From an uncultured Thermotogae bacterium (lineage in GTDB: Bacteria; Bipolaricaulota; Bipolaricaulia; UBA7950; UBA9294): a stretch of 53,216 bases of DNA. The stretch spans positions 1 to 53,216 of the forward strand of contig CAZKAB010000008.1 of NCBI GenBank assembly GCA_964550615.1, read 5' to 3'. Below, piece by piece: positions 184 through 48,303 of this stretch; position 1 is the stretch's first letter; every line of letters starts with the position of its first letter. The notes beneath the pieces were generated by a model that was not told where the DNA came from, ran no database searches, and saw nothing but the letters and a program-made list of their open reading frames with translations. The position numbers were made by a program, and so were the translations under genes.

Positions 184-660
184 ATGAAGAGACGAAGAGA
201 AGAGTTGAAGCGCGTGCTCAGACTCCTGCAGTTGTCTGCACTGCTGATAGTGGCGTTTGTTTTGTACGGGTGCCTTGCTTCGTTCACTCCGATTGATATC
301 GCCGGCACGTGGAGCGGGACAATTGCGTGGACCGAAGGGCCAGCGGCCGGGTTCACAACGCCGATTATGCTGATACTCACGCAGGATGGAACCGATATTA
401 CTGGCGAGATTGGACTAACGGGGCCAGGATCAACGCCATTCTCCGTGCCGATCACAGAAGGAACGGCCGGCAGTAGCTCGTTCACCATAACCGGAAGTGG
501 AAGCATGGATGTGATAGCGCCACCGGTCGCCATTGCCATCAATCTGCATGGAGATAGCGATGGCCAGACGGTGACCGGGACCGGTACGCAGACGATCAAC
601 AGCGCGATTTACGCTTTCACTTGGACAGCCACTCTGACCGCGCCGCCGCCGGAGGACTGA
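184..660 (+). CDS. Hypothetical lipoprotein (beta-rich mature domain)
   Basis: ORF 151..660; ATG at 184 chosen (TAGAAT at 171-176 lies 7 nt upstream). Basic N-terminus, hydrophobic stretch and lipobox-like LYGC; Thr/Gly-rich mature part. Confidence 0.6.
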   Translation: MKRRREELKRVLRLLQLSALLIVAFVLYGCLASFTPIDIAGTWSGTIAWTEGPAAGFTTPIMLILTQDGTDITGEIGLTGPGSTPFSVPITEGTAGSSSFTITGSGSMDVIAPPVAIAINLHGDSDGQTVTGTGTQTINSAIYAFTWTATLTAPPPED

Positions 661-847
661 GCCGCGAACCGCATGAGGGGATTGTGCGGTGTGTGTGCGA
701 AGGCACGTCGTGTGAGTGCGGAATCGGGAGGCACCTCGCCTCAGGGCTCGATGTGAGTCATGTCGTCATCGTACGCGGATCCTTCCATCGTTTCAGTGAA
801 TAGAGCGATCTCTCGGCACGACGGCGCTAGCTGTCACGCTTGCGTGA

Positions 848-856
848 TGGTAGAAT
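848..856 (+). promoter_or_regulatory. Extended -10 promoter (TGgTAGAAT) for the gltX operon
   Basis: TGGTAGAAT at 848-856; SD GGGAG at 880-884 precedes ATG 892. Confidence 0.55.
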
Positions 857-891
857 GAATGCAGGTGAGGATAAGGAAAGGGAGTAATGAG

Positions 892-2175
892 ATGGTCAGA
901 GTGAGATTCGCCCCCAGCCCGACCGGATATTTGCACGTCGGCGGGGCGCGCACGGCGTTGTTCAACTGGCTGTACGCCCGTCATCACGACGGTGCGTTCA
1001 TCCTGCGGATAGAAGACACCGATCAAGAGCGCTCAACGCAGGAATCGATCGATCAGATTGCCGAGGCAATGCAGTGGTTGGGGCTTGATTGGGATGAGTA
1101 CTATCGCCAGACGGATCGCACCGACGTACATCAAAATGCGGCACGGCGGCTGCTGGATAGCGGCGCCGCCTATGAGCAGGATGGTGCATGGTGGTTTCGC
1201 ATCCCTGCGGGCGAGACGGTGGTGCGCGACGCACTGACCGGAGATGTGCGATTCAGTCACGACGAAATCAAGGATTTCGTCATCCGTCGCTCCGATGGGA
1301 GCTTCGTTTACAACTTTGTTGTAGTAGTGGATGACGCCGATATGGGAATCACCCACGTTATCCGCGGCGACGATCACCTGACGAACACTCCCAAACAGAT
1401 TCTCTTATATCGAGCGCTGGGAAGAGAGCTTCCTTCTTTCGCGCATCTGCCGATGATCCTCGGGCCGGATCGTACACGGCTTTCGAAGCGCCACGGAGTA
1501 ACCTCGGTACTCGAGTACAAACGCCGTGGATTCCTCCCCGAGACAATGGTCAACTTCTTCGCCCGCCTTGGCTGGTCGCACGGCGATCAGGAGGTGTTCA
1601 CGCGTGACGAGTTGATTCGGCTGTTCGATCTGGACGCCGTTGGGAGTTCCGCCGCTGTGTTCGATGAAGAGAAACTGCGCTGGCTGAATCAACAGCATCT
1701 CAAGACAGCCGATCCTGCGCGGTTGGTGGATCTGTTGCAACCGTTTGTCTGTTCAAGAGGGGCGGTTACTGAATCGATGTGGAAAGAAGCCGGAACGGAT
1801 CGACTCGCGCAAGGTGCGTCCTTGTTGCGTCACCGTTGCCACACCCTGGTTGATCTGGCGGAGATGATGTTGATCCTGTTCCCGGTTCCGATGGTGAGTG
1901 AAGTCGATCTTAATATCGATGAGCGCCAGGCCGAGCTAGTTTCAGCGGTATGCGATTCCTTTGCCGGCGCGAAGTCGTTTTCGCATGAGGATGTGGAAAC
2001 GCTGCTACGCGACACTCTGTCGGCAAGAGGGGCAAAGCTGAAAGATGTGGCTGCCGTGATCCGCGCCGCCGCAACGGGACGTGCCGTCGGTCCGGGGCTA
2101 TTCGACATTCTGTCGGTCATCGGAAACGATCTTGTCGCACAACGGCTGCGGGCGATTGAGGGAGCGGATCGATGA
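892..2175 (+). CDS. gltX: Glutamate--tRNA ligase (short form)
   Basis: VRVRFAPSPTGYLHVGG (HIGH), LRIEDTD, HVIRGDDH, RLSKR (KMSKS), C-terminal anticodon domain ending GPGLFDIL. Start set at ATG 892 from the SD. Confidence 0.97.
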   Translation: MVRVRFAPSPTGYLHVGGARTALFNWLYARHHDGAFILRIEDTDQERSTQESIDQIAEAMQWLGLDWDEYYRQTDRTDVHQNAARRLLDSGAAYEQDGAWWFRIPAGETVVRDALTGDVRFSHDEIKDFVIRRSDGSFVYNFVVVVDDADMGITHVIRGDDHLTNTPKQILLYRALGRELPSFAHLPMILGPDRTRLSKRHGVTSVLEYKRRGFLPETMVNFFARLGWSHGDQEVFTRDELIRLFDLDAVGSSAAVFDEEKLRWLNQQHLKTADPARLVDLLQPFVCSRGAVTESMWKEAGTDRLAQGASLLRHRCHTLVDLAEMMLILFPVPMVSEVDLNIDERQAELVSAVCDSFAGAKSFSHEDVETLLRDTLSARGAKLKDVAAVIRAAATGRAVGPGLFDILSVIGNDLVAQRLRAIEGADR

Positions 2176-3326
2176 GCCGTCGCTATTTGTGGATGGGTGC
2201 CGTTCTCAGCATCCTTGCTTCCGCGGCCGCATTTGCAGCGACGGCCGACTTGCACTATGTCGACTCGATACTCGATCTGACGAGCTACTATCATCCGCAA
2301 GGGATTCAGCTCTCTTCGCAACCGATTCCCGCTCTGACCGAGCCGAGCTATCACGGGACTGCAATGTATGGGCTTGTCCCGCTTGGAGGAATGCGGTTTC
2401 CGGTTGTACTGGATTCAGACGGCGGGAGCGGAACGCTGTATGTGGACGTTGATGGAAGCGGCGCCCTATCCGCGGCGAGCTGGATGAGTCACGGACAGGA
2501 CGGGAACTACCTGGCGAGCGTATCATTCCGGCTCTCCGGAGAAGCCGTTGATGAGAGACGCTATCGCGCCTTCCTCATGTGGAACCCGGATACGCCCAGC
2601 GTGCTTACCTACTGCCGTGACAACTACGAGAGCGGCGAAATCGATCTCGATGGTGCGATGTACAAGATTGCCATCATTGATGAAAACAGTGACGGGGAGT
2701 TCGACGATCTTTCAGGCGGAGTGTTTCTCATCGATCTTGATCGGGACGGAACGATTCTGGCGTCGCCGGATTCGCACGAGCGGTACAGGTTGGATGAGGC
2801 GTTCAACATTGGCGGCGAAGTATATGCTGTTACCAGGGTAACGGCCGACGGCTCGCAGATCGAAATCGACAAGAGCGACACGTGGGTTGATCCAAAGCCG
2901 CCGCTCGAGGTTGGATATCCTGCTCCGGACTTCTCACTCACCGATTATGAAGGCGACAAGATACAGCTTTCATCCCTGCAAGGAAAGATCGTACTGATAG
3001 ATTTCTGGGCGAGCTGGTGTTCGCCTTGTCGGGACGAGCTCGCGAATGTCGAAGCGATCGCCAACGAGTACGCCGATGACGGTGTTGTTGTTCTTGGAGT
3101 TGATATCGATCGAAACGAAGGGGCGTTTGCCGGCATCGTGTCATCGTTCGGGCTCACCTATCGTCAGATCTTTGATGGCGCCGACGGCCCAGTCTCTTCT
3201 CTGTATCGTGTTATCGGGATTCCGATGACATACCTGATCGATCGCCAAGGCATTATTCGCGGCAAGCGACTGCGGGGGGATACGCTGCGGCAGGCGATCG
3301 ACGGGCTTGTGGGAGAAGGTAAGTGA
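2172..3326 (+). CDS. Secreted TlpA-family disulfide reductase with a large N-terminal domain
   Basis: Signal peptide; C-terminal APDFSL...LIDFWASWCSPC...GIPMTYLIDRQG; DxDxDG-like motifs in the N-domain; ATGA overlap with gltX. Confidence 0.85.
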   Translation: MSRRYLWMGAVLSILASAAAFAATADLHYVDSILDLTSYYHPQGIQLSSQPIPALTEPSYHGTAMYGLVPLGGMRFPVVLDSDGGSGTLYVDVDGSGALSAASWMSHGQDGNYLASVSFRLSGEAVDERRYRAFLMWNPDTPSVLTYCRDNYESGEIDLDGAMYKIAIIDENSDGEFDDLSGGVFLIDLDRDGTILASPDSHERYRLDEAFNIGGEVYAVTRVTADGSQIEIDKSDTWVDPKPPLEVGYPAPDFSLTDYEGDKIQLSSLQGKIVLIDFWASWCSPCRDELANVEAIANEYADDGVVVLGVDIDRNEGAFAGIVSSFGLTYRQIFDGADGPVSSLYRVIGIPMTYLIDRQGIIRGKRLRGDTLRQAIDGLVGEGK

Positions 3327-4324
3327 GCTATCGGGCGAGTGTCCGAGCTATCTTGCTCTTGCTCGCCACATGTCTCATCACCGGTGCTGTCGCGTGGGCG
3401 CAGTCGCCGATCCTGAAGTTCACCGTTTCTCCCGATGACGTCTCACTTTCTCCTGGGGGGACTGCGGCAATTGAGGTAAGAGTCGACAACGGCTCCGTAT
3501 ATCAGGCTGACGACATCGCCGTGAGCTTGTCTCCGACCGGTGGGATTACACTTGATCCGTCCGAGGTGTCAGTAGTTGAGATCGCGCCGTTTGCTGCGAG
3601 CACCGTCGCTGCAAATCTGGTCGCATCCTCCTCTCTTGCGGAAGGTCGATACGGTCTATCCCTCGACGTGATATATACGTATTGCATTGATATCAGTTGT
3701 TTCCAAATTGTGGAACAGATTCCGCTTACGGTTGCCGTCAGTAAAACGGCAGTGGCTGCCCCGGTGGCGGTGCGCGTGCATCTCCCACCTTGGCTATTGC
3801 CCGGTGCGGGGGCGGTGCTAATTGCATTGGGATTGGGCCTGTGGCGATTCCGCGACCAACGTCTGCCCCTGTACGTAATCCTGACCGTTCTCGTCGTTGT
3901 GGGGCTGGCCTACGGCGTTTCCCGCGGCCAGCATGAACAAGCGCAAGAGATCGCGGCCGTACTCTGCACGTCGTGCGTAGGGATCGAATCGGCGGAGCCG
4001 GGAGCCCCTTCCCTAACGCCCGCGGGCTTGGCGGCTCTGGGAGGAGTCACTTCTGATGTTGACCTGATAGTCTTCTTCGCTCCATGGTGCCACACCTGTC
4101 CGTATGCGGAAGCGATGGTGGAGCAGATGGCGGCAGCGAACGAACACATCCACTACCAATTCATCGATGTCAGCACTCAACGTGATCTGGCGATGAAGCA
4201 CGGTGTCATACGTTCCAATCGGACTATCGTTCCGGCGATCGTCCGCACGGACACGGGTGAAGTGATATTTGGGATTGAAGATCTGGAGAGCCGCTTGCTT
4301 CACATGTTGGGAGTGGGGACATGA
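3323..4324 (+). CDS. Multi-domain membrane redox protein: Ig-like C-x4-C domain, 2 TM helices, CxxC-VGI motif, thioredoxin domain
   Basis: Signal peptide; YTYCIDISCF; two hydrophobic segments; VLCTSCVGIE; FFAPWCHTCP and TIVP cis-Pro loop; GTGA overlap with the upstream gene. Confidence 0.75.
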   Translation: MSYRASVRAILLLLATCLITGAVAWAQSPILKFTVSPDDVSLSPGGTAAIEVRVDNGSVYQADDIAVSLSPTGGITLDPSEVSVVEIAPFAASTVAANLVASSSLAEGRYGLSLDVIYTYCIDISCFQIVEQIPLTVAVSKTAVAAPVAVRVHLPPWLLPGAGAVLIALGLGLWRFRDQRLPLYVILTVLVVVGLAYGVSRGQHEQAQEIAAVLCTSCVGIESAEPGAPSLTPAGLAALGGVTSDVDLIVFFAPWCHTCPYAEAMVEQMAAANEHIHYQFIDVSTQRDLAMKHGVIRSNRTIVPAIVRTDTGEVIFGIEDLESRLLHMLGVGT

Positions 4325-5151
4325 GATTGTCGATCATGCGGAGGATAAGCCAGTTCTTCGGAATTGTACTCGGCTTGTTCGGAGCTACCGGGATCGGGAT
4401 GACGCACATTATCTTCCCCGGCCTTCACTGCTACGCCTGCCCGCTTGCGGTGACGATCTGCCCGATCGGGCTGATGCAGAATCTCGTGGTCTATGGAACG
4501 TTTCCCTACTTCTGGATCGGCGCGATTGTCGCCTATGGCTTGCTTGCCGGAAGAGGATTCTGCGGCTGGTTCTGCCCGTTCGGAACGTTGAACGATCTTC
4601 TGTCTTTCCGGCGCGTGCGCATCAGCAGGCCCATCTCATATTCCAAGTTTGTTGTGCTGGCGGGGACGGTAGTCGCTGCGTGGGCATTCGCCGACACCAT
4701 GTTCTGCAAAATATGCCCGGCCGCATCACTTGAGGCGTCGATCCCCTATCTCTTTCTAGGCGTGGCACATGTCAATCGCCCATTTGTCGTGCACATGATT
4801 ACGCTTGGCCTTACGCTACTGGGGATGTTGTTGATCGCGCGCTTCTGGTGCCGCTACCTGTGCCCAATGGGGGCGTTGCTTTCGCTGTTCAACCGCGTAA
4901 GCTTCCTTCATCTCACACTTGACACAAGCCGTTGCGGACGATGTAGCGATTGTGCCTCGTCCTGTCCGATGGGAATCAATCCGCACGAAGACCACGACGA
5001 TCACAACTGCATCAAGTGTGGGGAGTGCGCTTCCGCGTGCTCGTTTGACGCTCTCAAGCTGACATTTGCTCCGCAGATCACGCACGAACGGAACGCTCGG
5101 AAGGTTGCGGATGAACGACGCGCACAACAAGGATCAAGGGACGGATCGTAG
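4321..5151 (+). CDS. NapH/MauN-like membrane 4Fe-4S binding protein
   Basis: LHCYACP, FCGWFCPFG, FCKICPA, WCRYLCPMG, and two ferredoxin motifs CGRCSDCASSCP and CIKCGECASAC; several TM segments. Confidence 0.9.
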   Translation: MRLSIMRRISQFFGIVLGLFGATGIGMTHIIFPGLHCYACPLAVTICPIGLMQNLVVYGTFPYFWIGAIVAYGLLAGRGFCGWFCPFGTLNDLLSFRRVRISRPISYSKFVVLAGTVVAAWAFADTMFCKICPAASLEASIPYLFLGVAHVNRPFVVHMITLGLTLLGMLLIARFWCRYLCPMGALLSLFNRVSFLHLTLDTSRCGRCSDCASSCPMGINPHEDHDDHNCIKCGECASACSFDALKLTFAPQITHERNARKVADERRAQQGSRDGS

Positions 5152-6345
5152 CAGAATCGACGCGTAGACGGCACCAGTGATTATGAGCGTCAGTGCAATT
5201 GCGATCAGAATACCGACTGTGGTCGATGATGCGGGCTCCGCGCTGATTGTGTAGGCGGCGATTTCATACCCGAGCGGACGCCCTGGATAGGAAGGGTCTT
5301 CCGCCCATGCCTCCCAAGTCCATGTTCCCGCCTCGGATTGCGAGACAGTTTCTTTTCCCCAAATGAACGTTCCGTCCGACAACGGCCGCGCCGCCGGATA
5401 GAGGCTCTGTTTGGAGCGTGAGTAGTGAAGTGTCCCTCCTGAGGTCGAGGTGTGGTAGGCATAGCGTACATTGCCGCTTGGGTCGATCACGCGCGTGTAG
5501 AGAAAGAGCGGTGTCGCTCCGTCCGAGCCTTCTTGGACGGTCAGCGAACGCACCTGCGTCTGCCCAGCCTGAACGACCCCGTCCGGAGAGAACGACAATG
5601 AGATACGCAAATCTGACTGCAAAACGGCAGGGACCGGGCCGGACACGACCACGTAGCGGTCGATCGTGTACGACCCGAAAACGCCGTGATCGAGGGTAGT
5701 CTTCACGCCTGCGGAAGCAGCCGTGTCGCTGTTGTACGGATCGATAATTGTGTACGTGGCGGAGGCTTTCCCTGTAATTACCACCCAGTGACAGTCCTCG
5801 GTTTGGGCCGTTGTCCCATGGCAGTGGTTGCCCCAGTGGACACCACAGATGATCGGATACCCGTTCCGCAAGGATTGGTCAATCATCAGGCGAGCATCCG
5901 TTGCAAGTCCGTTCTCATTGTGGTTGACATATGTTGCTGTCGATATTTGCGGCGGTAGATTAGTCCATTCCAGACAACATGCACCCGAACCATCGCCGCA
6001 CTGGCCGTATCCGCCGTGTGTCTTCAGCCAGTCGTTCAGAATCCCCGGATCCATCCCCTTTTGAGTAGCGCCGGTGCAGGAAGAAGCCGCGGGTACGCTG
6101 AGTTCCACGCCGTAGTAGTCGAGGACCATGGCGAAGGACGTGATCAAGCATCCGGCAGATGCGACTGCGTCCGTGCAGCCGTTCGTTCCCATTGAACAAT
6201 TTCCCCAGTATCCGGTTGCGTTGATGTATGCCTGATTGAATGCGGGAACAGGGAGGCTGATGGTCTCTTGTTGCGCCGTTACGGGTACGACGATAAGAAA
6301 TGGGATGAAGGCGGCAAGAAGGACAAGATATGCTGCCTGCCTCAT
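5134..6345 (-). CDS. C39-like cysteine peptidase domain protein, secreted, with C-terminal membrane anchor
   Basis: Signal peptide; GCLITSFAMVLDYYG (Cys), HWVVITG (His), YTIIDP (Asp); C-terminal hydrophobic helix. Confidence 0.75.
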   Translation of the reverse strand: MRQAAYLVLLAAFIPFLIVVPVTAQQETISLPVPAFNQAYINATGYWGNCSMGTNGCTDAVASAGCLITSFAMVLDYYGVELSVPAASSCTGATQKGMDPGILNDWLKTHGGYGQCGDGSGACCLEWTNLPPQISTATYVNHNENGLATDARLMIDQSLRNGYPIICGVHWGNHCHGTTAQTEDCHWVVITGKASATYTIIDPYNSDTAASAGVKTTLDHGVFGSYTIDRYVVVSGPVPAVLQSDLRISLSFSPDGVVQAGQTQVRSLTVQEGSDGATPLFLYTRVIDPSGNVRYAYHTSTSGGTLHYSRSKQSLYPAARPLSDGTFIWGKETVSQSEAGTWTWEAWAEDPSYPGRPLGYEIAAYTISAEPASSTTVGILIAIALTLIITGAVYASILLRSVP

Positions 6346-13399: not shown

Positions 13400-15151
13400 C
13401 TAGCCAAGAATACTGTCCAGATCGTCATTTGAGATGTCCCACACCGCGTTGTGTGGCGGGAGCGGCTCACGGCTCATGAACTCAGGAAGGCGATCGTTTG
13501 CGGCCGTGAATCCGGCGCCGCGGTTAAACGCTTTCTCGATACCGATGATCTCTTTTCCGATTCTGACAACATCGTCGCCGGTCCAATGTGTGCCAAGGAT
13601 TCCGTTGCATTCGTCGACCATTCCATCAAATCCTGACGGAATGTCGAGGATGGCGAATGCAATGAACAGACAGTGGCCGCTCGAATCGATGAATGCGGTC
13701 GCATACTGGAATCCGCGCGTCATTTCCACTTTCTTCTTTTCCAGCGGATCGGCTTCGCCGGCGACGCCGAGGACCTCGGTGGCGATCGTGTAACCGGAGG
13801 TGTGATCGGCTCCCATCGTTGACACGGCATACGTCATTCCGATTCCCTTGATTGCGCGTGGTTCGTACGCAGGCATGTTCTGTCCCTTGACGGCGGGAAC
13901 GCGCTCTACGCCCAGTACACGCCCGGTCGTGACCGCGCCGCTGCCGAGTACGCGCCCAAGCGGGGTCCCTGTACCGATTTCATCAACGAGTTCAAGCGCC
14001 CTCTTCCCGTCACCGAAATTAGCGAGGCCGCCTTCCATTGCCACCGCGATCGTACCCCCGATCTCGATCGTATCGAGGCCGTATTCGTTGCATCTATTGA
14101 TAAGGTCGGCGATTGTATCAAGGTCATCGATTCCGCAATTGGGTCCGAACGCCCAATCGGACTCGTACTCAACGCATGACACATGTTCGCTCCCATCGCG
14201 ACGATACAGGGTGTTCGAGCATTGGATGATGCATCCGGGGCTACAAGCGTGGTTATAGACCTCTTTGCCGGTGCGTTCCTTGTTGATCTCGAAAATCGCC
14301 TCACCGGCGACTTTTGCTGCACCCTCAAACCGGCCGCTGCGGAAATTGCGCGTTGGAAGTCCCCCTGCCTCATTGATTATGTTTACCAGTACTGCCGTTC
14401 CGTACGCGTTCAGCGCTCCCTTTGGCTTGGTGATTGCGTGCGAGGTCAGTGCCTCGGCGAGTTTCTTTCGCCCTTGGTCGAACAACTCCTTGTTTGCGAT
14501 CTCCACGCCGGGGGCGTCGGTGTCGTCTAGAATGATGAACTTCAAGCCCTTGCTCCCCAGTACCGCGCCCATCCCGCCGCGACCCGAATAGCGGGTAGCA
14601 CGGCCTTTCATGTCGTTGAAGCAGACGCCGGCGCTTCCCAGGCGGTATTCGCCCGCCGTGCCGATACCGAGGATAGACGTATGCGACACGTCGCCGTGCT
14701 GGCGGAACAGGCTCTCGTAAGCGCTTCCGAGTTTCATTCCGACATACTCGTCTGCGGGGACGAACTTCACGCCATCCTTGTCGATCTTGATGGTCCAATA
14801 CTTGTCCTTCTCGGCAGGCTTACCCTCGACGATGATTGCCTTGATTCGCAATCGAGCGAGCATGTGGGCGAATGCGGTTCCGGCGTTCGATTCCTTGATT
14901 GTTCCTGTAAGCGGCGATTTTGCGCCCACAGATACGCGTGCGGAAGAGGGGGCAGCGGTCCCGCTGACAATGCCGGCGGCAATCACGACTTTGTTGTTCG
15001 GCCCGAGCGAGTGACACGTGGGTGGCACCTCATCGAAAACGATGCTTGATGTCAGCCAGCGTCCAGCCCTCTGGAGATATTTCTCTGGCACACTCTCAAA
15101 GGTGGCTGCTAGCTCAGTCATGTCGATACGCAAGATACTCTGCACGATCAA
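13400..15151 (-). CDS. aor: Tungsten aldehyde:ferredoxin oxidoreductase family protein
   Basis: GAKSPLTGTIKESNAG, GRGGMGAVLGSKGLK, GGLPTRNF, CSPGCIIQC, EYES, GLDTIE, PAYEPR, GADHT, DRLPEF; TTG/GTG start with SD AGGAG. Confidence 0.93.
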   Translation of the reverse strand: MIVQSILRIDMTELAATFESVPEKYLQRAGRWLTSSIVFDEVPPTCHSLGPNNKVVIAAGIVSGTAAPSSARVSVGAKSPLTGTIKESNAGTAFAHMLARLRIKAIIVEGKPAEKDKYWTIKIDKDGVKFVPADEYVGMKLGSAYESLFRQHGDVSHTSILGIGTAGEYRLGSAGVCFNDMKGRATRYSGRGGMGAVLGSKGLKFIILDDTDAPGVEIANKELFDQGRKKLAEALTSHAITKPKGALNAYGTAVLVNIINEAGGLPTRNFRSGRFEGAAKVAGEAIFEINKERTGKEVYNHACSPGCIIQCSNTLYRRDGSEHVSCVEYESDWAFGPNCGIDDLDTIADLINRCNEYGLDTIEIGGTIAVAMEGGLANFGDGKRALELVDEIGTGTPLGRVLGSGAVTTGRVLGVERVPAVKGQNMPAYEPRAIKGIGMTYAVSTMGADHTSGYTIATEVLGVAGEADPLEKKKVEMTRGFQYATAFIDSSGHCLFIAFAILDIPSGFDGMVDECNGILGTHWTGDDVVRIGKEIIGIEKAFNRGAGFTAANDRLPEFMSREPLPPHNAVWDISNDDLDSILG

Positions 15152-18577: not shown

Positions 18578-19402
18578 CTACAGGAATGGAGTGATCGTCG
18601 CTTCCACAAGGTTGTCGGGTAATCCGTTGTAGCGGATCACGCCGTAGCGGTCGATGAGGATGGTGTGCGGCACAAATGATATCTGGTAGATGTCGGACGG
18701 TCGTTCAGAGAGATGAGATGGCTGCCAGAGGTTGATGAAGCCACCTAATCCCTCTTTTGCCAGATAATTCGCCGCGTCCTGTGGTGAACCATTGAGGATG
18801 ACGGTTATCACCACCACATTGTCATCTGTGAGGTCCGCTCGCAAGTCTTCCAAATGGGGGAGGGATGCTAGACAATGGGAGCAGGTAGTGCGCCAGAACT
18901 CGAGGATGACGACCTTTCCCAAGTAGTCAGATAGGTTATGATTTGCTCCTTGGAGATCGGGAAGCGTGAACAAGGGGGCCGCCTGCCCGACTTGTAGACC
19001 TGTGGGGACGTCGGCCCGCTGATAGGCCTTGTCGCTTATCAGATTGTCACCCATCGATACATTAGCTTCGGAAACGGTTATCGTGCTTGTCGAGCTGTTG
19101 CCGGCGCCTGCATCATCGAAGACCATCAGTGTCACTTCATAATCACCCGGGGCGGCGTAGACGTGCGTCTTCTTGTTACCCGATCCGGTATAGCCATCGC
19201 CGAAAACCCACTGATACGAGACAATCCTGCCATCGGGATCTTCCGATGCAGAGGCATCGAAGCGGACACTGAGAGGCGTTCCTCCCCCCGAGGATACGGA
19301 GAAGTGCGGAAGTGGTTGGTTGTTTGCAAGTGCTGTTCCCGCCACAACAAAAAGCCCGATCCCAAGGATAATGGCCGCCAAGACAGATGTCCTTTGCCTC
19401 AT
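18578..19402 (-). CDS. Secreted PKD domain plus TlpA/redoxin domain protein
   Basis: Signal peptide; FDASASEDPDGRIVSYQWVFGDG (PKD); APLFTLPDL...FWRTTCSHC...FVPHTILID; SD GAGGTGA before ATG 19402. Confidence 0.85.
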   Translation of the reverse strand: MRQRTSVLAAIILGIGLFVVAGTALANNQPLPHFSVSSGGGTPLSVRFDASASEDPDGRIVSYQWVFGDGYTGSGNKKTHVYAAPGDYEVTLMVFDDAGAGNSSTSTITVSEANVSMGDNLISDKAYQRADVPTGLQVGQAAPLFTLPDLQGANHNLSDYLGKVVILEFWRTTCSHCLASLPHLEDLRADLTDDNVVVITVILNGSPQDAANYLAKEGLGGFINLWQPSHLSERPSDIYQISFVPHTILIDRYGVIRYNGLPDNLVEATITPFL

Positions 19403-19508
19403 ATCGATCACCTCGTTGGAAGATAATAGCACAAAAGTATCGGTGCACCAGCCGGTACGAAAGGCGCCCGGGCGGATTGCCGGTTTGACAGCCTAACCCG
19501 GGCGACTC

Positions 19509-21833
19509 CTAGGCGGTGTTCTCACTAAGGGCTTGTAGCACGCGCTCTGGCGTGAACGGCGTCTCTGTCAGGCGCACTCCGATTGCGTCGTAGATAGCAT
19601 TGGCTATTGTCGGAATAGGGGCATTGATCCCGATTTCCGCGACCGATTTGGCGCCGAGCGGCCCGGTCGGCTCATATGAATCGACCAAGACTACGTCGAG
19701 CGGCGGCATGTCGAGCATGGATGGAATCTTGTAGTCGAACAGGCTCGGATTACGAACCCGTCCGAGAGAGCTTATCTGCATCTCCTCCGTCAGGGCGTAG
19801 CCGATTCCGTTTGCGATTGCCCCTTCCATTTGCCCCTCGGCCATGTTTGGATTGATGACCGTACCGCAGTCGGCGGCGACAACGTAGTTCAGGATTTTGA
19901 CGCGTCCTGTCTCAGTATTCACCGCCACTTCGGCGAAACTCGCCATGAACGGCGGCGGAGACTCCTGCGGCACGCTGGAAGCGGTTGCCCCGATCTGAAA
20001 CTGGTCTACGCGATACATTGCGCGCTCGCACACTGCGGCGAGTGAAACGCTTTTGCCCTCTGGGGTGTTTACGCTTTCTTGATCGACGGTGAGGCTGGAT
20101 GGGTCGGCGTCGAGCATGGAAGCGGCGACGCCGATGATTTGCTCGCGCACCTTCTCAGCCGCGCGTTTGACCGCCATCCCGGACACGTATGTCGTCGAAG
20201 AGGCATACGCACCCACGTCGAACGGGGTCAGATCGGTGTCCGACGAGTACACGATAACCTTTTCCAGCGGAACGCCAAGCACCTCGGCGGCGATCTGAGC
20301 AAGGATCGTATCCGACCCAGTCCCGAGGTCAGTCGCTCCGATGAGCAAGTTGAACGATCCATCCTCGTTCATCTTGATTGTCGCCGCGGCCATGTCGATC
20401 TCGGGAATTCCCGATCCTTGCATGTGAACGGACATTCCCACACCGTGCACCCAGGCGCCGTCACGGAATCTCCGCCCGTGTTTCTCGGCCCATCCGATAC
20501 GCTCTTCGCCGATATCGATGCAGCGGTCTAAGGCACAGCTCTTGATCGTGAACGCTACGCCTTCTCTCCCCTCTCCGAGCTTGGCGAAAATCGGAGAGGA
20601 TTCGCCGCTGCGGATGTGGTTCTTTCTGCGGAGCTCAACCGGATCAATGCTGAGTCGCTCAGCCAACTCATCCATCGCAACCTCAAGAGGGAAATAGCCC
20701 TGCGTTGCCCCGTAGCCGCGGTATGCGCCACCGACCGGAAGGTTCGTGTAGACCGCTCTCCCGAAGAAACGGACGTTCTCCGCCTTGTTGTACAGAGGAA
20801 GTGACTTAGACCCGGTGTTTGAGAGAACGGTAAGCCCGTGGCCTCCATATGCGCCGGTGTTCGAGATTCCCTCCATTTCGATCGCGTTCAACACGCCGTC
20901 GTTCTTCGCTCCGAGCTTGACTCGCACCCGCATCGGATGTCGCGTGCGCGAAGAGACGAACTCCTCTTTTCGGGTGAGTTCGATCAGTGCCGGCCTTCCG
21001 GTACGGAGCGTGACAAGTCCGGCGACGTCCTCCAGCAAGATCTCCTGTTTGGTGCCGAATCCTCCGCCGATGCGGGGCTTGATCACGCGGATGTGATGGA
21101 CGGGTATTCCCAACGCATAGGCAACGATCCTGCGCACGTGGAATGGAACCTGAGTGCTTGTGCGAAGGACGAGGCGGTTGTCATCGGCGAGATAGCTGAG
21201 CACGACGTGTGGCTCGATCGGCGTGTGTTGCGCATATTGCGTTTCGCATGTCGTCTCCACTACCACGTCCGATTCGGCGAAACCGCGCTCCACGTCACCG
21301 GCGGATATGTCTACGTTCGCGACGATATTCTTGGTTGATTCGTATATCCCGGTCGCATCCGCTTCATCATGGATAACTGGCGAGCCGGAGGCAAGGGCTT
21401 CATCTATCGATAGCACCGGGGGTAGCTTCTCATAGACGACCTCAATCGCGCTCAACGCTGCAAGTGCGATCTCTTCGGAATCCGCTGCAACGGCGGCGAC
21501 GCGATCTCCGATGAACCGGACCTTGTCATCGAACATACGGGTGTCGTAAGGGGATGGCTCGGGGAATCCTTGTCCGGCAGTGGTGAAACGGGTCGCCGGA
21601 GTATTCTTGTGAGTCAGGACGAGCGCAACACCGGGTATCGCTTCCGCCTTGCTCGTATCGATGGAGATGATCCTTGCGTGCGCGTGCGGGCTGTGGAGGA
21701 TCTTCACTTTGAGCGTACCGGGAAGATCGATGTCGTTCGTGAACTTCGGCTTTCCCGTCACCAAGCCGATTCCGTCGACCTTCTGCTTACTCTTCCCCAC
21801 GATGGAAAAGTCTCTGTTCTTCTCGCCCATCAT
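19509..21833 (-). CDS. Xanthine dehydrogenase family Mo-cofactor-binding subunit (XdhD/YgfN-like)
   Basis: SPHAHARI, RIGGGFGTKQE, AYRGYGATQG, DLGTGSDT, SSTTY, GAKSVAEI; start ATG 21833 in an ATGA overlap. Confidence 0.92.
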   Translation of the reverse strand: MMGEKNRDFSIVGKSKQKVDGIGLVTGKPKFTNDIDLPGTLKVKILHSPHAHARIISIDTSKAEAIPGVALVLTHKNTPATRFTTAGQGFPEPSPYDTRMFDDKVRFIGDRVAAVAADSEEIALAALSAIEVVYEKLPPVLSIDEALASGSPVIHDEADATGIYESTKNIVANVDISAGDVERGFAESDVVVETTCETQYAQHTPIEPHVVLSYLADDNRLVLRTSTQVPFHVRRIVAYALGIPVHHIRVIKPRIGGGFGTKQEILLEDVAGLVTLRTGRPALIELTRKEEFVSSRTRHPMRVRVKLGAKNDGVLNAIEMEGISNTGAYGGHGLTVLSNTGSKSLPLYNKAENVRFFGRAVYTNLPVGGAYRGYGATQGYFPLEVAMDELAERLSIDPVELRRKNHIRSGESSPIFAKLGEGREGVAFTIKSCALDRCIDIGEERIGWAEKHGRRFRDGAWVHGVGMSVHMQGSGIPEIDMAAATIKMNEDGSFNLLIGATDLGTGSDTILAQIAAEVLGVPLEKVIVYSSDTDLTPFDVGAYASSTTYVSGMAVKRAAEKVREQIIGVAASMLDADPSSLTVDQESVNTPEGKSVSLAAVCERAMYRVDQFQIGATASSVPQESPPPFMASFAEVAVNTETGRVKILNYVVAADCGTVINPNMAEGQMEGAIANGIGYALTEEMQISSLGRVRNPSLFDYKIPSMLDMPPLDVVLVDSYEPTGPLGAKSVAEIGINAPIPTIANAIYDAIGVRLTETPFTPERVLQALSENTA

Positions 21834-22303
21834 AAGGATCCTCCGCTCATCTTTTTCGCGGCCGACTTGACTGCTTTCACCTGTTTGACATAGCCGGTAC
21901 AACGACACAAATTCCCGGAAAGAGCTTCCTTGATCTCGTCTGTGCTGGGCTTAGGGTTATGAGTGAGAAGGTCAAGGGTTGCCATCTCCATTCCCGGCGT
22001 GCAATATCCGCACTGCACGGCTCCTTCCTCAAGAAACGCCTCCTGAATCGGGTGCAGCTTCCCGTCGTGTTCCAGACCTTCAGCGGTAATGACAGAGCCG
22101 CCATCTGCCTTGGCTGCGAAGACAAGGCACGAAGTCACTGCATGATCGTTGAGAATCACTGTACAGGCACCACAATCCCCTGATCCACACCCCTTCTTGA
22201 CGCTTTTGTATCCAGCGCTCCTCAGCAGTTCAAGCAAACTCTCGCCCGGCGTAATCTCGAATTCGCGGCATTCGTTGTTGACGGTTAGCGTGATTTTCAT
22301 CAT
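21830..22303 (-). CDS. Xanthine dehydrogenase family [2Fe-2S] subunit
   Basis: KKGCGSGDCGAC...SC, QCGYCTPG, NLCRCTGY. Confidence 0.95.
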   Translation of the reverse strand: MMKITLTVNNECREFEITPGESLLELLRSAGYKSVKKGCGSGDCGACTVILNDHAVTSCLVFAAKADGGSVITAEGLEHDGKLHPIQEAFLEEGAVQCGYCTPGMEMATLDLLTHNPKPSTDEIKEALSGNLCRCTGYVKQVKAVKSAAKKMSGGSL

Positions 22304-23151
22304 CCCTCCTCCGGTTTCTCCGAGATCTCAAGCAGACACCGCTTGATCAGTACGTAGATGAGCTGTCTGCGGTAGTCCGCACTTGCGCGGCGGTCGTCTG
22401 CGACAACGGTCGTATTCCGTGCCACGCGGGCCGCTTTGTCAATCGTCTCAAGTGAAAGAGCTGCTCCAAGCAGGGCATTCTCAGCTTCAGGCAGCCTTGT
22501 CGCGAGATATGGAGTCCCTCCGACTGCAATGCGCGCTGTCGCACACTTACCTGAGTGTATCTCTACCGCGCAAGCGCAGTTGACAAGAGCGATATCGAGT
22601 TCCGTGCGACCGAATTTCTGGAACGCTGCAGCGCAGCCGGCAGAAGGAACGGGAATTACCACCTCGCGCACAATTGATCCTGTCAGCAGGGCGCGCGACG
22701 CATACAGATCGGACAAGGGAATTGGCTCTGCCTCCTTGTCGTGTAACACAACTTGCGCATTGAGTGCAATGAAAAGCGGGATAACATCCGACCACGAGTG
22801 TGCACTCACAATCGTTCCTCCCACGGTCGCAAGATTGCGTAGAAGTGGCGATCCCACCTTCCTTAACATCTGTCCGATAACTCCGCCCAGTACGCGACTG
22901 ATTGTCCGGTCGCCCAATAACTGCGCAAACGTTGTTGCAGCGCCGATCGCAATCGCAACAGGACGTTCCTCGACGTAGGAAAGGCCAAGCTTGGAGATAT
23001 CGATCAACGTTGTCACATCAGCGGGAAGGAAGCGCGCAAGATCGATCCCCCCACCGATGATGCGCGCCGTTTTTCCGCACTTTCGCAACAGGGCGTGCGC
23101 TTCATCCAGCGAGGATGGCCGCGCATAATCCATAAGTTGACTGCGAGACAC
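22300..23151 (-). CDS. Xanthine dehydrogenase family FAD-binding subunit
   Basis: YARPSSLDEA, IIGGGIDL, LRNLATVGG, DDRRASADYRR; GTG start after GGAGGGA. Confidence 0.9.
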   Translation of the reverse strand: MSRSQLMDYARPSSLDEAHALLRKCGKTARIIGGGIDLARFLPADVTTLIDISKLGLSYVEERPVAIAIGAATTFAQLLGDRTISRVLGGVIGQMLRKVGSPLLRNLATVGGTIVSAHSWSDVIPLFIALNAQVVLHDKEAEPIPLSDLYASRALLTGSIVREVVIPVPSAGCAAAFQKFGRTELDIALVNCACAVEIHSGKCATARIAVGGTPYLATRLPEAENALLGAALSLETIDKAARVARNTTVVADDRRASADYRRQLIYVLIKRCLLEISEKPEEG

Positions 23152-23717: not shown

Positions 23718-24416
23718 GTGAACAGGATCATCGTCGGTTTGATGGCAATTGTCCTGCTGGCTGGGGTTTCGTTGCTGGCGGCGCCGGTGATAACGGCTGG
23801 CGGCGCAGTGTACGATTTCGGCACAGTGATAGAGGGAGCGTTCGTTACGCACACATTTGTGCTGACCAATTCAGGTGATGCGACGCTGACAATCACGCGC
23901 GTGACAACGAGCTGCGGTTGCACGACAACCGATCTCTCGCAGACCAGCCTTGCGCCCGGAGATTCGGTCAATCTCGACGTCAATTTCGACTCGGTCGGCT
24001 TTGGCGGCCAGACAGTGACCAAGCTCATCTATGTAGAGTCGAACGATCCCACACAACCGAAGTTCGTGCTTCAATTGAAGGGGAATGTGAATCGCGCGCA
24101 GCCATACAACATTGCCTGCGGCGACCTGAACTACCTCTTCTATCTGCTGGTCGATCTACGAGATCAAGATTCATACGCATCATCGCACATGCTTGGTGCG
24201 GTCAATATTCCCTACAGCGAGCTGACCGATTGGATGGACCGCCTCCCTACAGGGGTGCTGATCGTACTCTATGATGAAGATGGTACGAAGAGCGATCAAG
24301 CGGCGCAGATGCTGAATAAGAACGGGTTTCCTGAGGCGAAAAGCCTTCTGGGTGGGTTCGACGAGTGGACGCGGATATTCAAAGACAAGTTTGTCATCTC
24401 TGACCAAGATAAGTAA
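23718..24416 (+). CDS. Secreted DUF1573 plus rhodanese-like domain protein (copy 1)
   Basis: Signal peptide; FVLTNSGD...TSCGCT...LAPG; LVDLR...HMLGAVNIP...YDEDG...LLGGFDEW. Confidence 0.85.
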   Translation: MNRIIVGLMAIVLLAGVSLLAAPVITAGGAVYDFGTVIEGAFVTHTFVLTNSGDATLTITRVTTSCGCTTTDLSQTSLAPGDSVNLDVNFDSVGFGGQTVTKLIYVESNDPTQPKFVLQLKGNVNRAQPYNIACGDLNYLFYLLVDLRDQDSYASSHMLGAVNIPYSELTDWMDRLPTGVLIVLYDEDGTKSDQAAQMLNKNGFPEAKSLLGGFDEWTRIFKDKFVISDQDK

Positions 24417-25359: not shown

Positions 25360-25409
25360 GCGACGTGGCCGGCTGCGCGCAACGGACCGGCGAAAGGAGC
25401 GGCCCTAGA

Positions 25410-26504: not shown

Positions 26505-26513
26505 GAGGATTGG

Positions 26514-48296: not shown

Positions 48297-48303
48297 AGGA
48301 GGA

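Follow-up and report, generated by a model that had tools for sequence, protein, structure and literature searches.

A NapH-like polyferredoxin gene linked to genes for a CxxC/thioredoxin membrane protein and a secreted redoxin: a putative Fe-S-driven reductant pathway across the membrane

A gene chain headed by gltX

The window is a stretch of 53,216 nucleotides (contig CAZKAB010000008.1) from an uncultured Thermotogae bacterium that GTDB places in the Bipolaricaulota. Near its start gltX is followed by three genes, which we call ORF A, ORF B and ORF C. Their features are as follows (positions are those of the window).

859..2175, + strand: gltX, glutamate--tRNA ligase, head of the chain (TIGR00464, 445 bits)
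2172..3326, + strand: ORF A, TlpA/ResA-like secreted redoxin, 384 aa
ORF A, aa 1-24: signal peptide
ORF A, following about 215 aa: N-terminal domain without a family match
ORF A, aa 244-384: TlpA/ResA-like redoxin domain (Pfam AhpC-TSA/Redoxin 4e-23; NCBIfam ResA 1e-27)
3015..3029, + strand: active-site WCSPC, aa 282-286 in the redoxin domain of ORF A
3323..4324, + strand: ORF B, Ig-like/TM/CxxC/thioredoxin protein, 333 aa
3404..3742, + strand: Ig-like beta-sandwich of ORF B, NPCBM_assoc/CARDB type (aa 28-140)
3683-3700, + strand: hairpin cysteine pair C121-x4-C126 of the Ig-like domain
3857..3988, + strand: CD1871A-like module of ORF B (aa 179-222), comprising TM helix 2, an amphipathic helix and CTSC
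3965-3976, + strand: CTSC of this module, then VGIE
4040..4321, + strand: small thioredoxin/glutaredoxin-like domain of ORF B with WCHTCP (aa 240-333)
4088-4099, + strand: CHTC of this domain
4321..5151, + strand: ORF C, NapH-like membrane polyferredoxin, 276 aa
4429..4464, + strand: cysteines of predicted outer loop 1 of ORF C, C37-YA-C40-P (CYACP, 37-41) and C47-P48
4561..4578, + strand: first CX3CP of ORF C, CGWFCP (81-86; C81/C85), inner end of TM2, invariant
4705..4719, + strand: cysteines of predicted outer loop 3 of ORF C, C129-KI-C132-P (CKICP, 129-133)
4849..4866, + strand: second CX3CP of ORF C, CRYLCP (177-182; C177/C181), inner end of TM4, invariant
4933..5040, + strand: two CX2CX2CX3C [4Fe-4S] motifs of ORF C (aa 205-215 and 230-240; Pfam Fer4 families)

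Direct reading of the sequence places 4-base overlaps at each junction, ATGA at 2172-2175 (gltX/ORF A), GTGA at 3323-3326 (ORF A/ORF B) and ATGA at 4321-4324 (ORF B/ORF C), and a GGAG-like Shine-Dalgarno site lies upstream of each of the three. Such overlaps are frequent in operons and are unremarkable alone. The best PDB match of ORF A is ResA (4nmu, 3e-22), a weak match to MauD was also obtained (9e-5), and a family search with residues 1-248 gave no match.

ORF B consists of a signal peptide, the Ig-like domain, two TM helices, the CxxC module and the thioredoxin domain. Past the signal peptide it contains exactly three cysteine pairs, C121/C126, C215/C218 (CTSC) and C256/C259 (CHTC), and all six residues are invariant among 41 homologues. 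The AlphaFold2 model (pLDDT 83.7) comprises a signal helix, a beta-sandwich at residues 31-139, TM helices at residues 158-177 and 181-200, an amphipathic helix that CTSC terminates, and a Trx fold at residues 246-328. Foldseek matched the N-terminal domain to Ig-like domains, Pfam NPCBM_assoc was found in 10 of 28 members, and no relationship to the DsbD alpha domain could be detected. The pair C121/C126, which is also kept in the orthologue from a contig labelled Thermotogota (loci L005/L006), could be solely structural. The thioredoxin domain matches the NCBIfam PDO and MJ0307-type thioredoxin models and, in the PDB, PDO (1a8l/1j08) and MJ0307 (1fo5). ORF B has 137 homologues at E<=1e-3, and among 120 of these the ones with a source name are labelled Bipolaricaulota.

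ORF C has four TM helices and a 2x[4Fe-4S] domain predicted by charge bias to be cytoplasmic. Pfam Fer4_5 is above its cut-off (2.6e-15) whereas the NapH/MauN models remain under theirs (NF007013, 86 bits against 234; TIGR02163, 72 against 213), and 7611 relatives were retrieved at E<=1e-3. In an alignment of 34 Bipolaricaulota homologues the CX3CP and [4Fe-4S] motifs are invariant, as are C37, C47, P48 and C132 of the outer loops, and C40 and C129 are almost so. Loop 1 is hydrophobic and may be re-entrant; loop 1 cysteines of this type are not known from E. coli NapH. PDB matches of ORF C are confined to the 2x[4Fe-4S] part and its AlphaFold2 model is poor (pLDDT 57.9).

A preliminary description, made from the sequence alone, had proposed the overlapping chain of gltX with ORFs A, B and C, a secreted TlpA with WCSPC, a membrane protein with three cysteine pairs predicted outside the cytoplasm and a membrane protein with two [4Fe-4S] and four CxxC/Cx3CP motifs. 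All of this held, including the coordinates of the overlaps; the pairs of ORF B are read directly and the side on which they lie is predicted. It had missed the DsbD-like layout of the outer domains of ORF B, with an Ig-like domain carrying its own cysteine pair. The proposed coupling to gltX held in part: the linkage is conserved in Bipolaricaulota only (loci L001-L003, of which L002 lacks ORF A) and gltX is not found at L005-L009, the only non-Bipolaricaulota loci with flanks inspected.

Conservation and natural fusions of the module

Neighbourhoods were counted in the best 80 loci of the ORF C clade. A TM helix followed by C-x-x-C-[IV]-G-[IL] adjoins the NapH-like gene on the same strand in 63 of them, just upstream in 62 and downstream in one, and these loci span many bacterial and archaeal lineages; elsewhere, with all six frames searched, the motif gave only 5 off-target matches. 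On NF040920 (cut-off 32) the small partners from loci of Firmicutes and Desulfobulbaceae reach 33-64 bits (top score 63.7), and they are members of the CD1871A family. Residues 179-222 of ORF B are a divergent copy of this family, homologous to the small partners: NF040920 itself gives only 10-13 bits on ORF B, under its cut-off, but an HMM of 55 stand-alone partners gives 32.8 bits on the module and profile-profile comparison with these proteins (hhalign) a probability of 97.4% (E 9.5e-12). The carriers are mostly strict anaerobes, including Bathyarchaeia, Methanofastidiosum, Lachnospiraceae and Bipolaricaulota. The ORF B-ORF C pair also recurs in the Thermotogota-labelled contig, with different flanking genes.

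A Trx-fold gene is fused or adjacent in 41 of the 80 loci, with none within 1.5 kb in the other 39. The density of Trx-fold ORFs is 0.153 per kb within 1.5 kb and 0.013 per kb beyond, an approximately 12-fold enrichment, and the commonest order, redoxin, CxxC protein, NapH-like protein, agrees with that of ORFs A, B and C. The linkage of the three gene types thus greatly exceeds chance. Natural fusions cover all three pairings. NapH-like-TM-redoxin fusions have one predicted TM helix between the Fe-S and redoxin domains, with a single exception among those examined, and such fusions also occur in 9 of the 80 loci; ORFs A and B form a single in-frame polypeptide in loci L012-L014; and TM-CxxC-Trx proteins are encoded in a Bathyarchaeia MAG, a Methanofastidiosum MAG and the Thermotogota-labelled contig.

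The synteny search across anaerobes, set beforehand as a test of the preliminary description, is therefore positive. Two outcomes that would have refuted it did not materialize: the genes are conserved together (63/80 for the CxxC module, 41/80 for a Trx-fold gene), and the NapH-like-TM-redoxin fusions speak against ORF C being part of a reductase encoded elsewhere. Its statement that small CD1871A-type proteins occur beside 4Fe-4S genes and redoxins was correct.

No CxxC partner is recognisable in 17 of the 80 loci, where radical SAM enzymes, multihaem cytochromes and AhpD-like proteins are found as neighbours, so the NapH-like core may be a general-purpose conduit. Since its outer cysteines are kept with or without a visible CxxC partner, there is no discriminating covariation. 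One could argue that, as a subunit of the NapH-like protein, the CxxC module serves only structure or assembly, for instance by providing ligands for an interfacial cluster, that the acceptor is not a Trx-fold protein, and that ORF A and the Trx domain of ORF B are served by a DsbD_TM-type protein. The presence of such a gene (25365-26504, DsbD_TM/CcdA-like) in the same window, the 39 loci without a nearby Trx-fold gene and the other neighbours of loci lacking the partner are in favour of this explanation. We consider it unlikely, because the recurrent NapH-like-redoxin and CxxC module-Trx fusions are difficult to account for unless a direct functional link exists, and Trx-fold genes are strongly enriched beside the NapH-like gene.

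A second alternative, also improbable in our view, is metal handling of the CcoG/FixG kind, in which the polyferredoxin and its CxxC partner would reduce or traffic extracytoplasmic Cu(II) or Fe(III), the CxxC module being a metal-binding peptide and the TlpA-like proteins serving metallochaperone reduction. CcoG, a related membrane polyferredoxin, acts as a cupric reductase, and CxxC is a frequent metal-binding motif. Moreover the fusion proteins have Pfam matches to Fer4_18 (CcoG-type) and one neighbouring redoxin also matches SCO1/SenC. Against this, the partners that recur consistently, whether by fusion or as neighbours, are Trx-fold CxxC proteins. Moreover, the inspected loci contained no genes for metal transporters, chaperones or cuproenzymes, and the CxxC module of ORF B is covalently joined to a Trx domain, an arrangement in keeping with a thiol relay.

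Relation to known electron conduits

The presumed task of ORFs A, B and C is that of DsbD, CcdA and ScsB, namely to supply extracytoplasmic Trx-fold proteins (TlpA/ResA/CcmG class) with reductant through the membrane. The outer part of ORF B resembles that of DsbD (a membrane-tethered Ig-like domain with a hairpin cysteine pair and a CxxC Trx-like domain), and the TlpA fusions are similar in architecture to DipZ and ScsB. In contrast, none of the three ORFs has a DsbD_TM domain by Pfam or NCBIfam, the membrane step would rely on a four-helix NapH-like protein with 2x[4Fe-4S] and a one-helix CxxC module, and the predicted donor is an Fe-S/ferredoxin system instead of cytoplasmic thioredoxin. 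The preliminary description had the system replacing the membrane domain of DsbD. This fails for the present organism: because the window also encodes the DsbD_TM/CcdA-type protein mentioned above (25365-27008 with its own Grx-like domains), which could in principle serve ORFs A and B instead of ORF C, we regard ORFs A, B and C as a parallel route.

ORF C shares with NapH, NosR, RdhC (PceC) and MauN a core of four TM helices whose inner face carries two CX3CP motifs, and with NapH, NosR and MauN the C-terminal cytoplasmic 2x[4Fe-4S] domain. Members of this family are proposed to be modular transmembrane electron conduits (PMC8238504, PMC5928378), with extracytosolic FMN domains as targets (PMC8238504), and the CX3CP motifs common to NapH, NosR and RdhC may be redox-active disulfides (PMC5928378). 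ORF C differs by its extra invariant cysteines in both outer loops, by the absence of nap, nos, rdh or mau genes nearby and by its partners, a CxxC peptide module and Trx-fold proteins in place of NapG, an FMN-binding domain or a terminal reductase. In mauD/mauE/mauM/mauN clusters a TlpA-like redoxin (MauD) and the NapH-like MauN also occur together, as ORFs A and C do, but the mau structural genes are absent here, mau clusters are not known to contain the CxxC module, and to our knowledge MauD and MauN have not been shown to be functionally connected. The CD1871A family (NF040920) has no assigned function; ORF B aligns with the full model over residues 179-222 but in ORF B the module is flanked by a Trx domain on one side and by an Ig-like domain with an extra TM helix on the other.

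A putative pathway from ferredoxin to secreted redoxins

In the ORF C clade the K+R content per 100 aa is 34 at the N-terminus, 2 in loop 1, 23 in loop 2, 5 in loop 3 and 14 after TM4, a bias that probably puts the CxxCP loops on the outer side of the membrane, with the Fe-S domain and the CX3CP motifs on the cytoplasmic side. Charge bias likewise predicts an N-in/C-out orientation for the CxxC module. In the A-B fusion proteins the signal-peptide-led TlpA domain runs straight into the Ig domain, and since the chain is continuous and should next cross the membrane twice, an outside position is expected for CTSC and the Trx domain, as for the Ig domain. The thiol domains are thus all predicted outside and the Fe-S domain inside, and a cytoplasmic location of CTSC and the Trx domain, which would have refuted the preliminary description, is not predicted.

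We favour, with a probability of about 0.6, the reading that ORFs C, B and A constitute an Fe-S-driven pathway that supplies reductant through the membrane to thiol-disulfide oxidoreductases outside the cytoplasm. The analysis demonstrates the order of the genes, their domains and conservation, the fusions and a predicted topology; which donor and which clients take part, in which direction electrons flow and every single transfer step are inferred, without experimental or structural evidence. The cytoplasmic 2x[4Fe-4S] domain of ORF C would take up low-potential electrons, with reduced ferredoxin as the likely donor because ORF C has no nucleotide-binding domain. Electrons would then cross the four-helix core via the inner CX3CP motifs and, in the outer leaflet, C37/C40/C47 and C129/C132; these cysteines may be redox-active disulfides or ligands of additional Fe-S centres, their geometry not being given by the poor model. 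The outer cysteines would reduce CTSC of the CD1871A-like module docked at the outer face, and CTSC the tethered Trx domain (CHTC), possibly onward to C121/C126, an order that would mirror the gamma and alpha domains of DsbD. Finally ORF B would reduce the WCSPC site of ORF A, and perhaps other secreted redoxins, so that exported cysteines (or methionines, via partner enzymes) stay reduced. Fe-S centres can reduce disulfides, as ferredoxin:thioredoxin reductase and heterodisulfide reductase (HdrB/HdrD) demonstrate. These enzymes offer a chemical precedent for one-electron steps from cluster to disulfide, but they are soluble or on the cytoplasmic side and unrelated in sequence, and the analogy is mechanistic only. 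Also in favour of the pathway, ferredoxin-linked enzymes (AOR and 2-oxoacid:ferredoxin oxidoreductase) are encoded in the window.

The direction of electron flow rests solely on thermodynamics and family precedent. The same complex might run in reverse as a disulfide-forming system of the DsbB/VKOR kind, in which extracytoplasmic Trx-fold proteins oxidise exported proteins and electrons pass inward, first to CTSC and then through the NapH-like core, to end on a quinone or on the Fe-S domain in the cytoplasm. NapH has been viewed as a quinol-interacting membrane module (PMC5928378), the Trx domain of ORF B is nearest to the PDO/PDI type, which is able to oxidise or isomerise, and no evidence obtained here fixes the direction. 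Nonetheless we judge this unlikely. The partner redoxins, whose sites read WCxPC or WCGPC, are of the TlpA/ResA/CcmG class, in which no characterised member is known to be other than a reductant; reduction of ferredoxin-type clusters by a dithiol (about -120 to -270 mV) would be uphill; and the carriers are mostly strict anaerobes, many of which are not known to have quinones.

The central proposal of the preliminary description, an Fe-S route from cytoplasmic low-potential donors to extracytoplasmic thioredoxins, is supported by the comparative evidence, its chemistry and direction remaining inferred. No paper describing the system of ORFs A, B and C was found in the literature searched. These ORFs belong to a widespread, uncharacterised module of anaerobic bacteria and archaea. 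If the reductant pathway is real, outward delivery of electrons to extracytoplasmic thioredoxins would extend beyond the DsbD/CcdA-type proteins, so far its only known providers.

The gltX-A-B-C gene chain and its products

Judging by the source names of the nearest homologues of ORFs B and C, the window is inferred to belong to a member of Candidatus Bipolaricaulota (Acetothermia/OP1). The three genes of the module lie directly behind gltX and form with it a chain of four genes on the plus strand.

859-2175, plus strand: gltX, first of the four chained genes
2172-3326, plus strand: ORF A, secreted TlpA/ResA-like redoxin, 384 aa
3323-4324, plus strand: ORF B, Ig-like domain, two transmembrane (TM) helices, CxxC module and thioredoxin (Trx) domain, 333 aa
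4321-5151, plus strand: ORF C, NapH-like polyferredoxin, 276 aa

The start-stop overlaps reported in the preliminary description are real and can be read in the sequence (ATGA at 2172-2175, GTGA at 3323-3326 and ATGA at 4321-4324), and a GGAG-like ribosome-binding site precedes every one of the three. No promoter or terminator above chance was found in a scan of window positions 500-5600, and the unit is ended by a convergent gene (5134-6345, minus strand). This gene, which overlaps ORF C by 18 bases and is kept beside the module in distant Bipolaricaulota (loci L001-L003), encodes a secreted protein rich in Cys that resembles Peptidase_C39_2 and has a TM helix at its C-terminus; such an exported cysteine peptidase is, as a matter of speculation, a plausible client of a reducing pathway.

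Within Bipolaricaulota the gene order gltX-(A)-B-C-bacA is conserved, the ORF A homologue being missing in L002. Because the entire neighbourhood is syntenic in L001-L003 and A can be missing, synteny within this phylum proves little by itself. The undecaprenyl-diphosphatase gene bacA/uppP lies directly 3' of the ORF C homologue in all three loci:

L001, 7805-8584: bacA/uppP
L002, 7763-8551: bacA/uppP
L003, 7904-8587: bacA/uppP

It overlaps the ORF C homologue in L001 and L002 and is absent from the corresponding position of the window. The proposed coupling to gltX is true as an adjacency; a functional link was rejected, the linkage being limited to Bipolaricaulota, where the whole neighbourhood is syntenic.

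Three parts make up ORF A: a signal peptide, about 215 N-terminal residues without a match in a family search, and a C-terminal TlpA/ResA-type redoxin domain with the active site WCSPC. Its Trx fold is of the AhpC-TSA/Redoxin type (Pfam, 82 bits against a cut-off of 26), its best PDB match is ResA (3e-22), and CcmG/DsbE, TlpA, pneumococcal Etrx and the DipZ C-domain are also among the solved structures closest to it. By fold, WCxxC site and export signal the protein meets the criterion for an extracytoplasmic oxidoreductase of the TlpA/ResA/CcmG type; the subfamily cannot be assigned since the scores fall below the equivalog cut-offs of ResA, TlpA and DsbE. The scanned window ORFs included no gene for cytochrome c maturation.

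The AlphaFold2 model of ORF B is confident (pLDDT 83.7) and comprises a signal helix, an Ig-like beta-sandwich (31-139) and two TM helices (158-177 and 181-200) joined by the basic loop RFRDQR, followed by an amphipathic helix with CTSC (215-218) at its end; a linker leads to a small Trx fold that carries WCHTCP. The beta-sandwich domain is of a generic Ig-like/NPCBM_assoc type, with the pair C121-x4-C126 at a beta-hairpin. All six cysteines that follow the signal peptide are invariant in 41 homologues at only 37-88% identity, as is the stretch QHEQAQxIxxVLCTSCVGIE. Residues 179-222 fit the layout of CD1871A (NF040920), a family of small proteins defined by NCBI curators without an assigned function: one TM helix, an amphipathic stretch and CxxC-[IV]-G-[IL], with ORF C adjacent. 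The segment scores 10.2-13.3 bits, below the 32-bit cut-off, so the membership score is not met. In C. difficile papers the name CD1871 denotes either a conjugative-transposon gene or an ABC permease, and these mentions say nothing about this family.

The core of ORF C is of the NapH type, with a Fer4_5 domain (Pfam, 56.6 bits against a cut-off of 22), two CX3CP motifs (aa 81-86 and 177-182) and two [4Fe-4S] motifs (205-215 and 230-240); its four hydrophobic segments and a charge bias in agreement with them meet the criterion for NapH-type architecture. The cut-offs of the specific families are not met (86.4 bits against 234 for NF007013 and 71.6 against 213 for TIGR02163), and no napAB/napG, mau, nos or rdh genes were found among the ~30 larger window ORFs scanned, nor in loci L001-L009. 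ORF C is far more conserved than ORF B, with 67-79% identity among the listed homologues. In the ORF C clade (34 diverse members), lysine plus arginine per 100 residues amounts to 34 at the N-terminus, 2 in loop 1, 23 in loop 2, 5 in loop 3 and 14 after TM4. This bias predicts that the N-terminus, the CX3CP motifs and the Fe-S domain are inside and that loops 1 and 3, which hold the extra cysteines, are outside. The predicted topology agrees with that published for the homologues NosR and PceC, whose FMN domains face outward (PMC5928378). Both outer loops are hydrophobic, possibly re-entrant.

The outer-loop cysteines (C37, C40 and C47; C129 and C132) are all invariant within Bipolaricaulota, and at least four are always present on the outer face in the members inspected: among ORF C relatives from the representative-protein search, C129 is absent in P0261, P0265, P0271, P0281 and P0284 and C40 in P0244 (Thermotogota-labelled), the other outer cysteines being kept. 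Such a number would suit either a cluster site or a pair of disulfides. No covariation of these cysteines with the CxxC partner described below was detected, as they are conserved with and without it (four alignment rows were mis-extracted). For the CX3CP motifs of NapH, NosR and RdhC the choice between disulfides and cluster ligands has been left open in the literature, NosR containing up to 8 Fe per molecule (PMC5928378). A PDB search found no solved structure covering the ORF C membrane core. The AlphaFold2 model of ORF C was discarded (pLDDT 57.9 from a 34-sequence alignment); the alignment is too shallow for modelling because all 34 rows are at least 67% identical.

Gene fusions and neighbourhoods in other genomes

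With ORF C as query, an exhaustive HMMER search through 1.84 billion representative proteins returned 7611 relatives at E<=1e-3, a count that also takes in other NapH-like and ferredoxin-domain proteins. The best 150 matches are 31-47% identical, and many are 490-730 aa long. According to Pfam these long relatives are natural fusions of a NapH-like core and two [4Fe-4S] motifs with one or two Redoxin/AhpC-TSA domains carrying WCGPC-like sites; one cluster of such fusions comes from Oscillospiraceae. In all but one fusion examined, a hydrophobicity scan found a single TM helix between the Fe-S and redoxin domains, which places the redoxin on the membrane side opposite the clusters. A and B are fused in one frame of ~690 aa in three deep-branching Bipolaricaulota MAGs:

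L012, 1905-4004: A-B fusion
L013, 1920-4004: A-B fusion
L014, 1145-3493: A-B fusion

The partner of the NapH-like protein in Bathyarchaeia and Methanofastidiosum MAGs is a minimal TM-CxxC-Trx protein of 150-170 aa. Each pairwise link among A, B and C is thus backed by an independent gene fusion.

The A-B fusions also bear on topology, as their signal-peptide-led TlpA domain and the Ig domain share one compartment; with two helices following the Ig domain, CTSC and the Trx domain of ORF B are predicted to lie in the compartment of TlpA. The 12 residues that precede the helix in CxxC modules contain 3.2 K+R and 0.6 D+E, and the tail is net negative, from which an N-in/C-out orientation is predicted.

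Outside Bipolaricaulota the pair B-C was found on a Thermotogota-labelled contig, where the gene of an ORF C homologue 42% identical to that of the window shares 4 bases with the gene of a true orthologue of ORF B, a protein that combines a signal peptide and YLTCDDQTC with two TM helices, STLCISCVGLE and a WCKSCP-bearing Trx domain. A secreted WCGPC thioredoxin is encoded next, and the flanking genes are unrelated. Upstream of the NapH-like gene, locus L008 encodes a 48-aa TM protein ending in TLCLSCIGIG, L009 a 261-aa multi-TM protein ending in QICTECIGLG, and L007 an uncalled archaeal TM ORF of 53 aa ending in FICTSCLGLGG, with a secreted redoxin downstream. Another two 'Thermotogae'-labelled MAGs (L010 and L011) have ORF C homologues 70-74% identical to the window's and are, for this reason, probably Bipolaricaulota under another label.

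Two conserved clade peptides, derived from 8 sequences, were then used to scan a genome set with one member per GTDB species; this yielded 589 relatives, and the best 80 loci were analysed. These belong to Bipolaricaulota, Dehalococcoidia, Anaerolineales, Stahlbacteria, Dictyoglomota, Cloacimonadota, Zixibacteria, Acidobacteriota, Aminicenantes, Planctomycetota, Verrucomicrobia, Poribacteria, Desulfobulbaceae and other Deltaproteobacteria, many Firmicutes (Lachnospiraceae, Oscillospiraceae, Eubacteriales), one actinobacterium, and the Archaea Bathyarchaeia, Hydrothermarchaeota and Methanofastidiosum. A partner was defined as a same-strand ORF beside the NapH-like gene with a TM helix and, ~20 residues on, C-x-x-C-[IVLAM]-G-[IVLMF]. 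Such a partner is present in 63 of the 80 loci, just upstream of the NapH-like gene in 62 and downstream in one, and its motif forms the very C-terminus in 55 of the 63; elsewhere in all six frames of the 80 loci the pattern occurs only 5 times. An ORF with a Trx fold is fused to the NapH-like gene in 9 loci and lies within 1.5 kb in 32 more (41 of 80), the density of such ORFs being 0.153 per kb near the gene against 0.013 per kb further out. The commonest order, redoxin, CxxC protein, NapH-like protein, is that of A-B-C. The synteny test proposed in the preliminary description was therefore positive beyond Bipolaricaulota. These counts concern gene association, and a purely structural role of the CxxC peptide remains possible and is not excluded.

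Stand-alone partners from Firmicutes and Desulfobulbaceae score 32.9-63.7 bits against NF040920 (cut-off 32); the archaeal partners, like ORF B, are sub-threshold (10-18 bits) yet align over the full model. A profile of ORF B residues 176-226 matched one of 55 stand-alone partners with an hhalign probability of 97.4% (E 9.5e-12), a score that is partly by construction as the CxxC motif was used to collect both sequence sets.

The CxxC partner is absent in 17 of the best 80 loci, which have other neighbours. Those of the partnerless loci L025, L041 and L069, L055 and L058, and L059, L065 and L087 are AmmeMemoRadiSam-type radical SAM proteins, multihaem cytochromes c or AhpD-like (CxxC) proteins. 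This variety hints at exchangeable output modules, and the NapH-like core may be a general conduit, in line with the exchangeable outputs that Meheust et al. proposed for flavinylated partners (PMC8238504). Long extensions also occur in this family: the Methanofastidiosum NapH-like protein at L022 3983-6076 has a C-terminal extension of ~430 aa, predicted to be cytoplasmic, with Cys-rich Fe-S-like motifs, and P0272 (692 aa) has a similarly long one with an additional Fe-S motif and a Thioredoxin_3-like end. Both could be built-in electron input modules.

DsbD-type and other redox genes of the window

The window encodes further redox proteins:

13400-15151, minus strand: aldehyde:ferredoxin oxidoreductase
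18578-19432, minus strand: second exported redoxin, with signal/anchor helix, PKD domain and AhpC-TSA/Redoxin domain with CSHC
19509-23151, minus strand: xanthine-dehydrogenase-type molybdoenzyme and FAD subunit
23718-24416 and 24661-25359, plus strand: two paralogous secreted DUF1573 (Ig-like, CGC motif) and rhodanese proteins, directly upstream of the DsbD_TM fusion
25365-26504, plus strand: fusion of an N-terminal Grx/Trx-like domain (CPHC) and a DsbD_TM/CcdA-type domain (PF02683), 379 aa
26514-27008, plus strand: secreted or anchored Grx-like protein (CPNC), next after the DsbD_TM fusion
48286-49362, plus strand: 2-oxoacid:ferredoxin oxidoreductase alpha subunit

The product of 25365-26504 matches PF02683 over its full length (25.4 bits against a cut-off of 27.1, E 1e-5), has the membrane-domain motifs NPCAC and LPCTSGP, and represents a conventional transmembrane thiol conduit in the same genome. 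The criterion being a PF02683/PF13386 domain whose two half-repeats each hold a conserved Cys, we found no DsbD_TM match in ORFs A, B and C at E<=0.1 (Pfam), the fusion at 25365-26504 serving as internal positive control. Unlike DsbD and CcdA, ORF B has just two TM helices after its signal peptide and lacks the DsbD_TM membrane domain. Its N-domain was also considered as a homologue of the DsbD alpha-domain (DsbD_N, PF11412). A 28-member profile retrieved no DsbD structure from the PDB at E<=10, and a Pfam scan of the 28 N-domains gave no PF11412 match, only generic Ig-like/NPCBM_assoc ones; homology was rejected, the resemblance (Ig-like fold, hairpin Cys pair) being one of analogy. By the same analogy, ORF B can be viewed as a composite of a CD1871A-type module and a DsbD-like set of outer domains (Ig-like with a Cys pair, and Trx-like).

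Since the window encodes this DsbD_TM fusion, the organism is not DsbD-less, and the earlier claim that the module replaces the DsbD membrane domain fails here. The module and the DsbD-type protein are parallel systems in this organism, and in principle A could be served by the latter. The redoxin at 18578-19432 is a possible further client of either conduit, and the DUF1573-rhodanese pair may form an extracytoplasmic cluster for sulfur or thiol handling. The aldehyde, xanthine-dehydrogenase-type and 2-oxoacid enzymes represent ordinary anaerobic ferredoxin-linked metabolism.

Proposed electron path and its implications

An Fe-S-driven conduit that reduces extracytoplasmic Trx-fold proteins, as the preliminary description had proposed, remains the best-supported reading, to which we assign a probability of roughly 0.6; electron transfer and its direction are both inferred. 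By analogy with the beta to gamma to alpha relay of DsbD, thiols would plausibly be relayed from CTSC to CHTC, then possibly C121/C126, and on to WCSPC. Ferredoxin is inferred as donor because there is no nucleotide-binding domain, and ferredoxin-linked enzymes are encoded in the window. The reductive direction is inferred from the TlpA/ResA class of the partners, thermodynamics and the strict-anaerobe distribution; the opposite, oxidative flow through the same module is possible and not excluded, and the same holds for a CcoG-like metal function.

Reductant in the bacterial envelope serves cytochrome c maturation, disulfide isomerisation and the repair of oxidised Cys and Met, and to our knowledge there is no textbook route for it other than DsbD/CcdA-family proteins fed by cytoplasmic thioredoxin. 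A bolder form of the reductive conduit reading, to which we give a realistic chance slightly below even, is that the NapH-like four-helix protein and the one-helix CxxC peptide constitute a third, mechanistically distinct class of transmembrane reductant conduit, an Fe-S/cysteine wire that links the ferredoxin pool directly to extracytoplasmic Trx-fold proteins. Such a class would occur widely among anaerobic Bacteria and Archaea and would need neither DsbD/CcdA nor cytoplasmic thioredoxin. No paper describing a NapH-like/CxxC-peptide/redoxin system was found in the literature searched, the coverage of which is incomplete. Both parent concepts, NapH-like conduits and envelope thiol reductant pathways, are already known, and the system is therefore a variant of known concepts rather than categorically new.

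If the conduit reading is true, it would account for the supply of reductant to the many TlpA-like redoxins that strict anaerobes and archaea secrete, and would assign a function to the CD1871A small proteins as well as to the '4Fe-4S binding proteins', a large clade without annotation. Modular NapH-like conduits, so far tied to flavinylated partners, would gain a thiol output, and the long-open role of CX3CP in NapH, NosR and RdhC would become directly testable in a small two- or three-gene system. As the module is abundant in gut Lachnospiraceae and Oscillospiraceae, it may have a bearing on the oxygen tolerance of the anaerobic microbiota.
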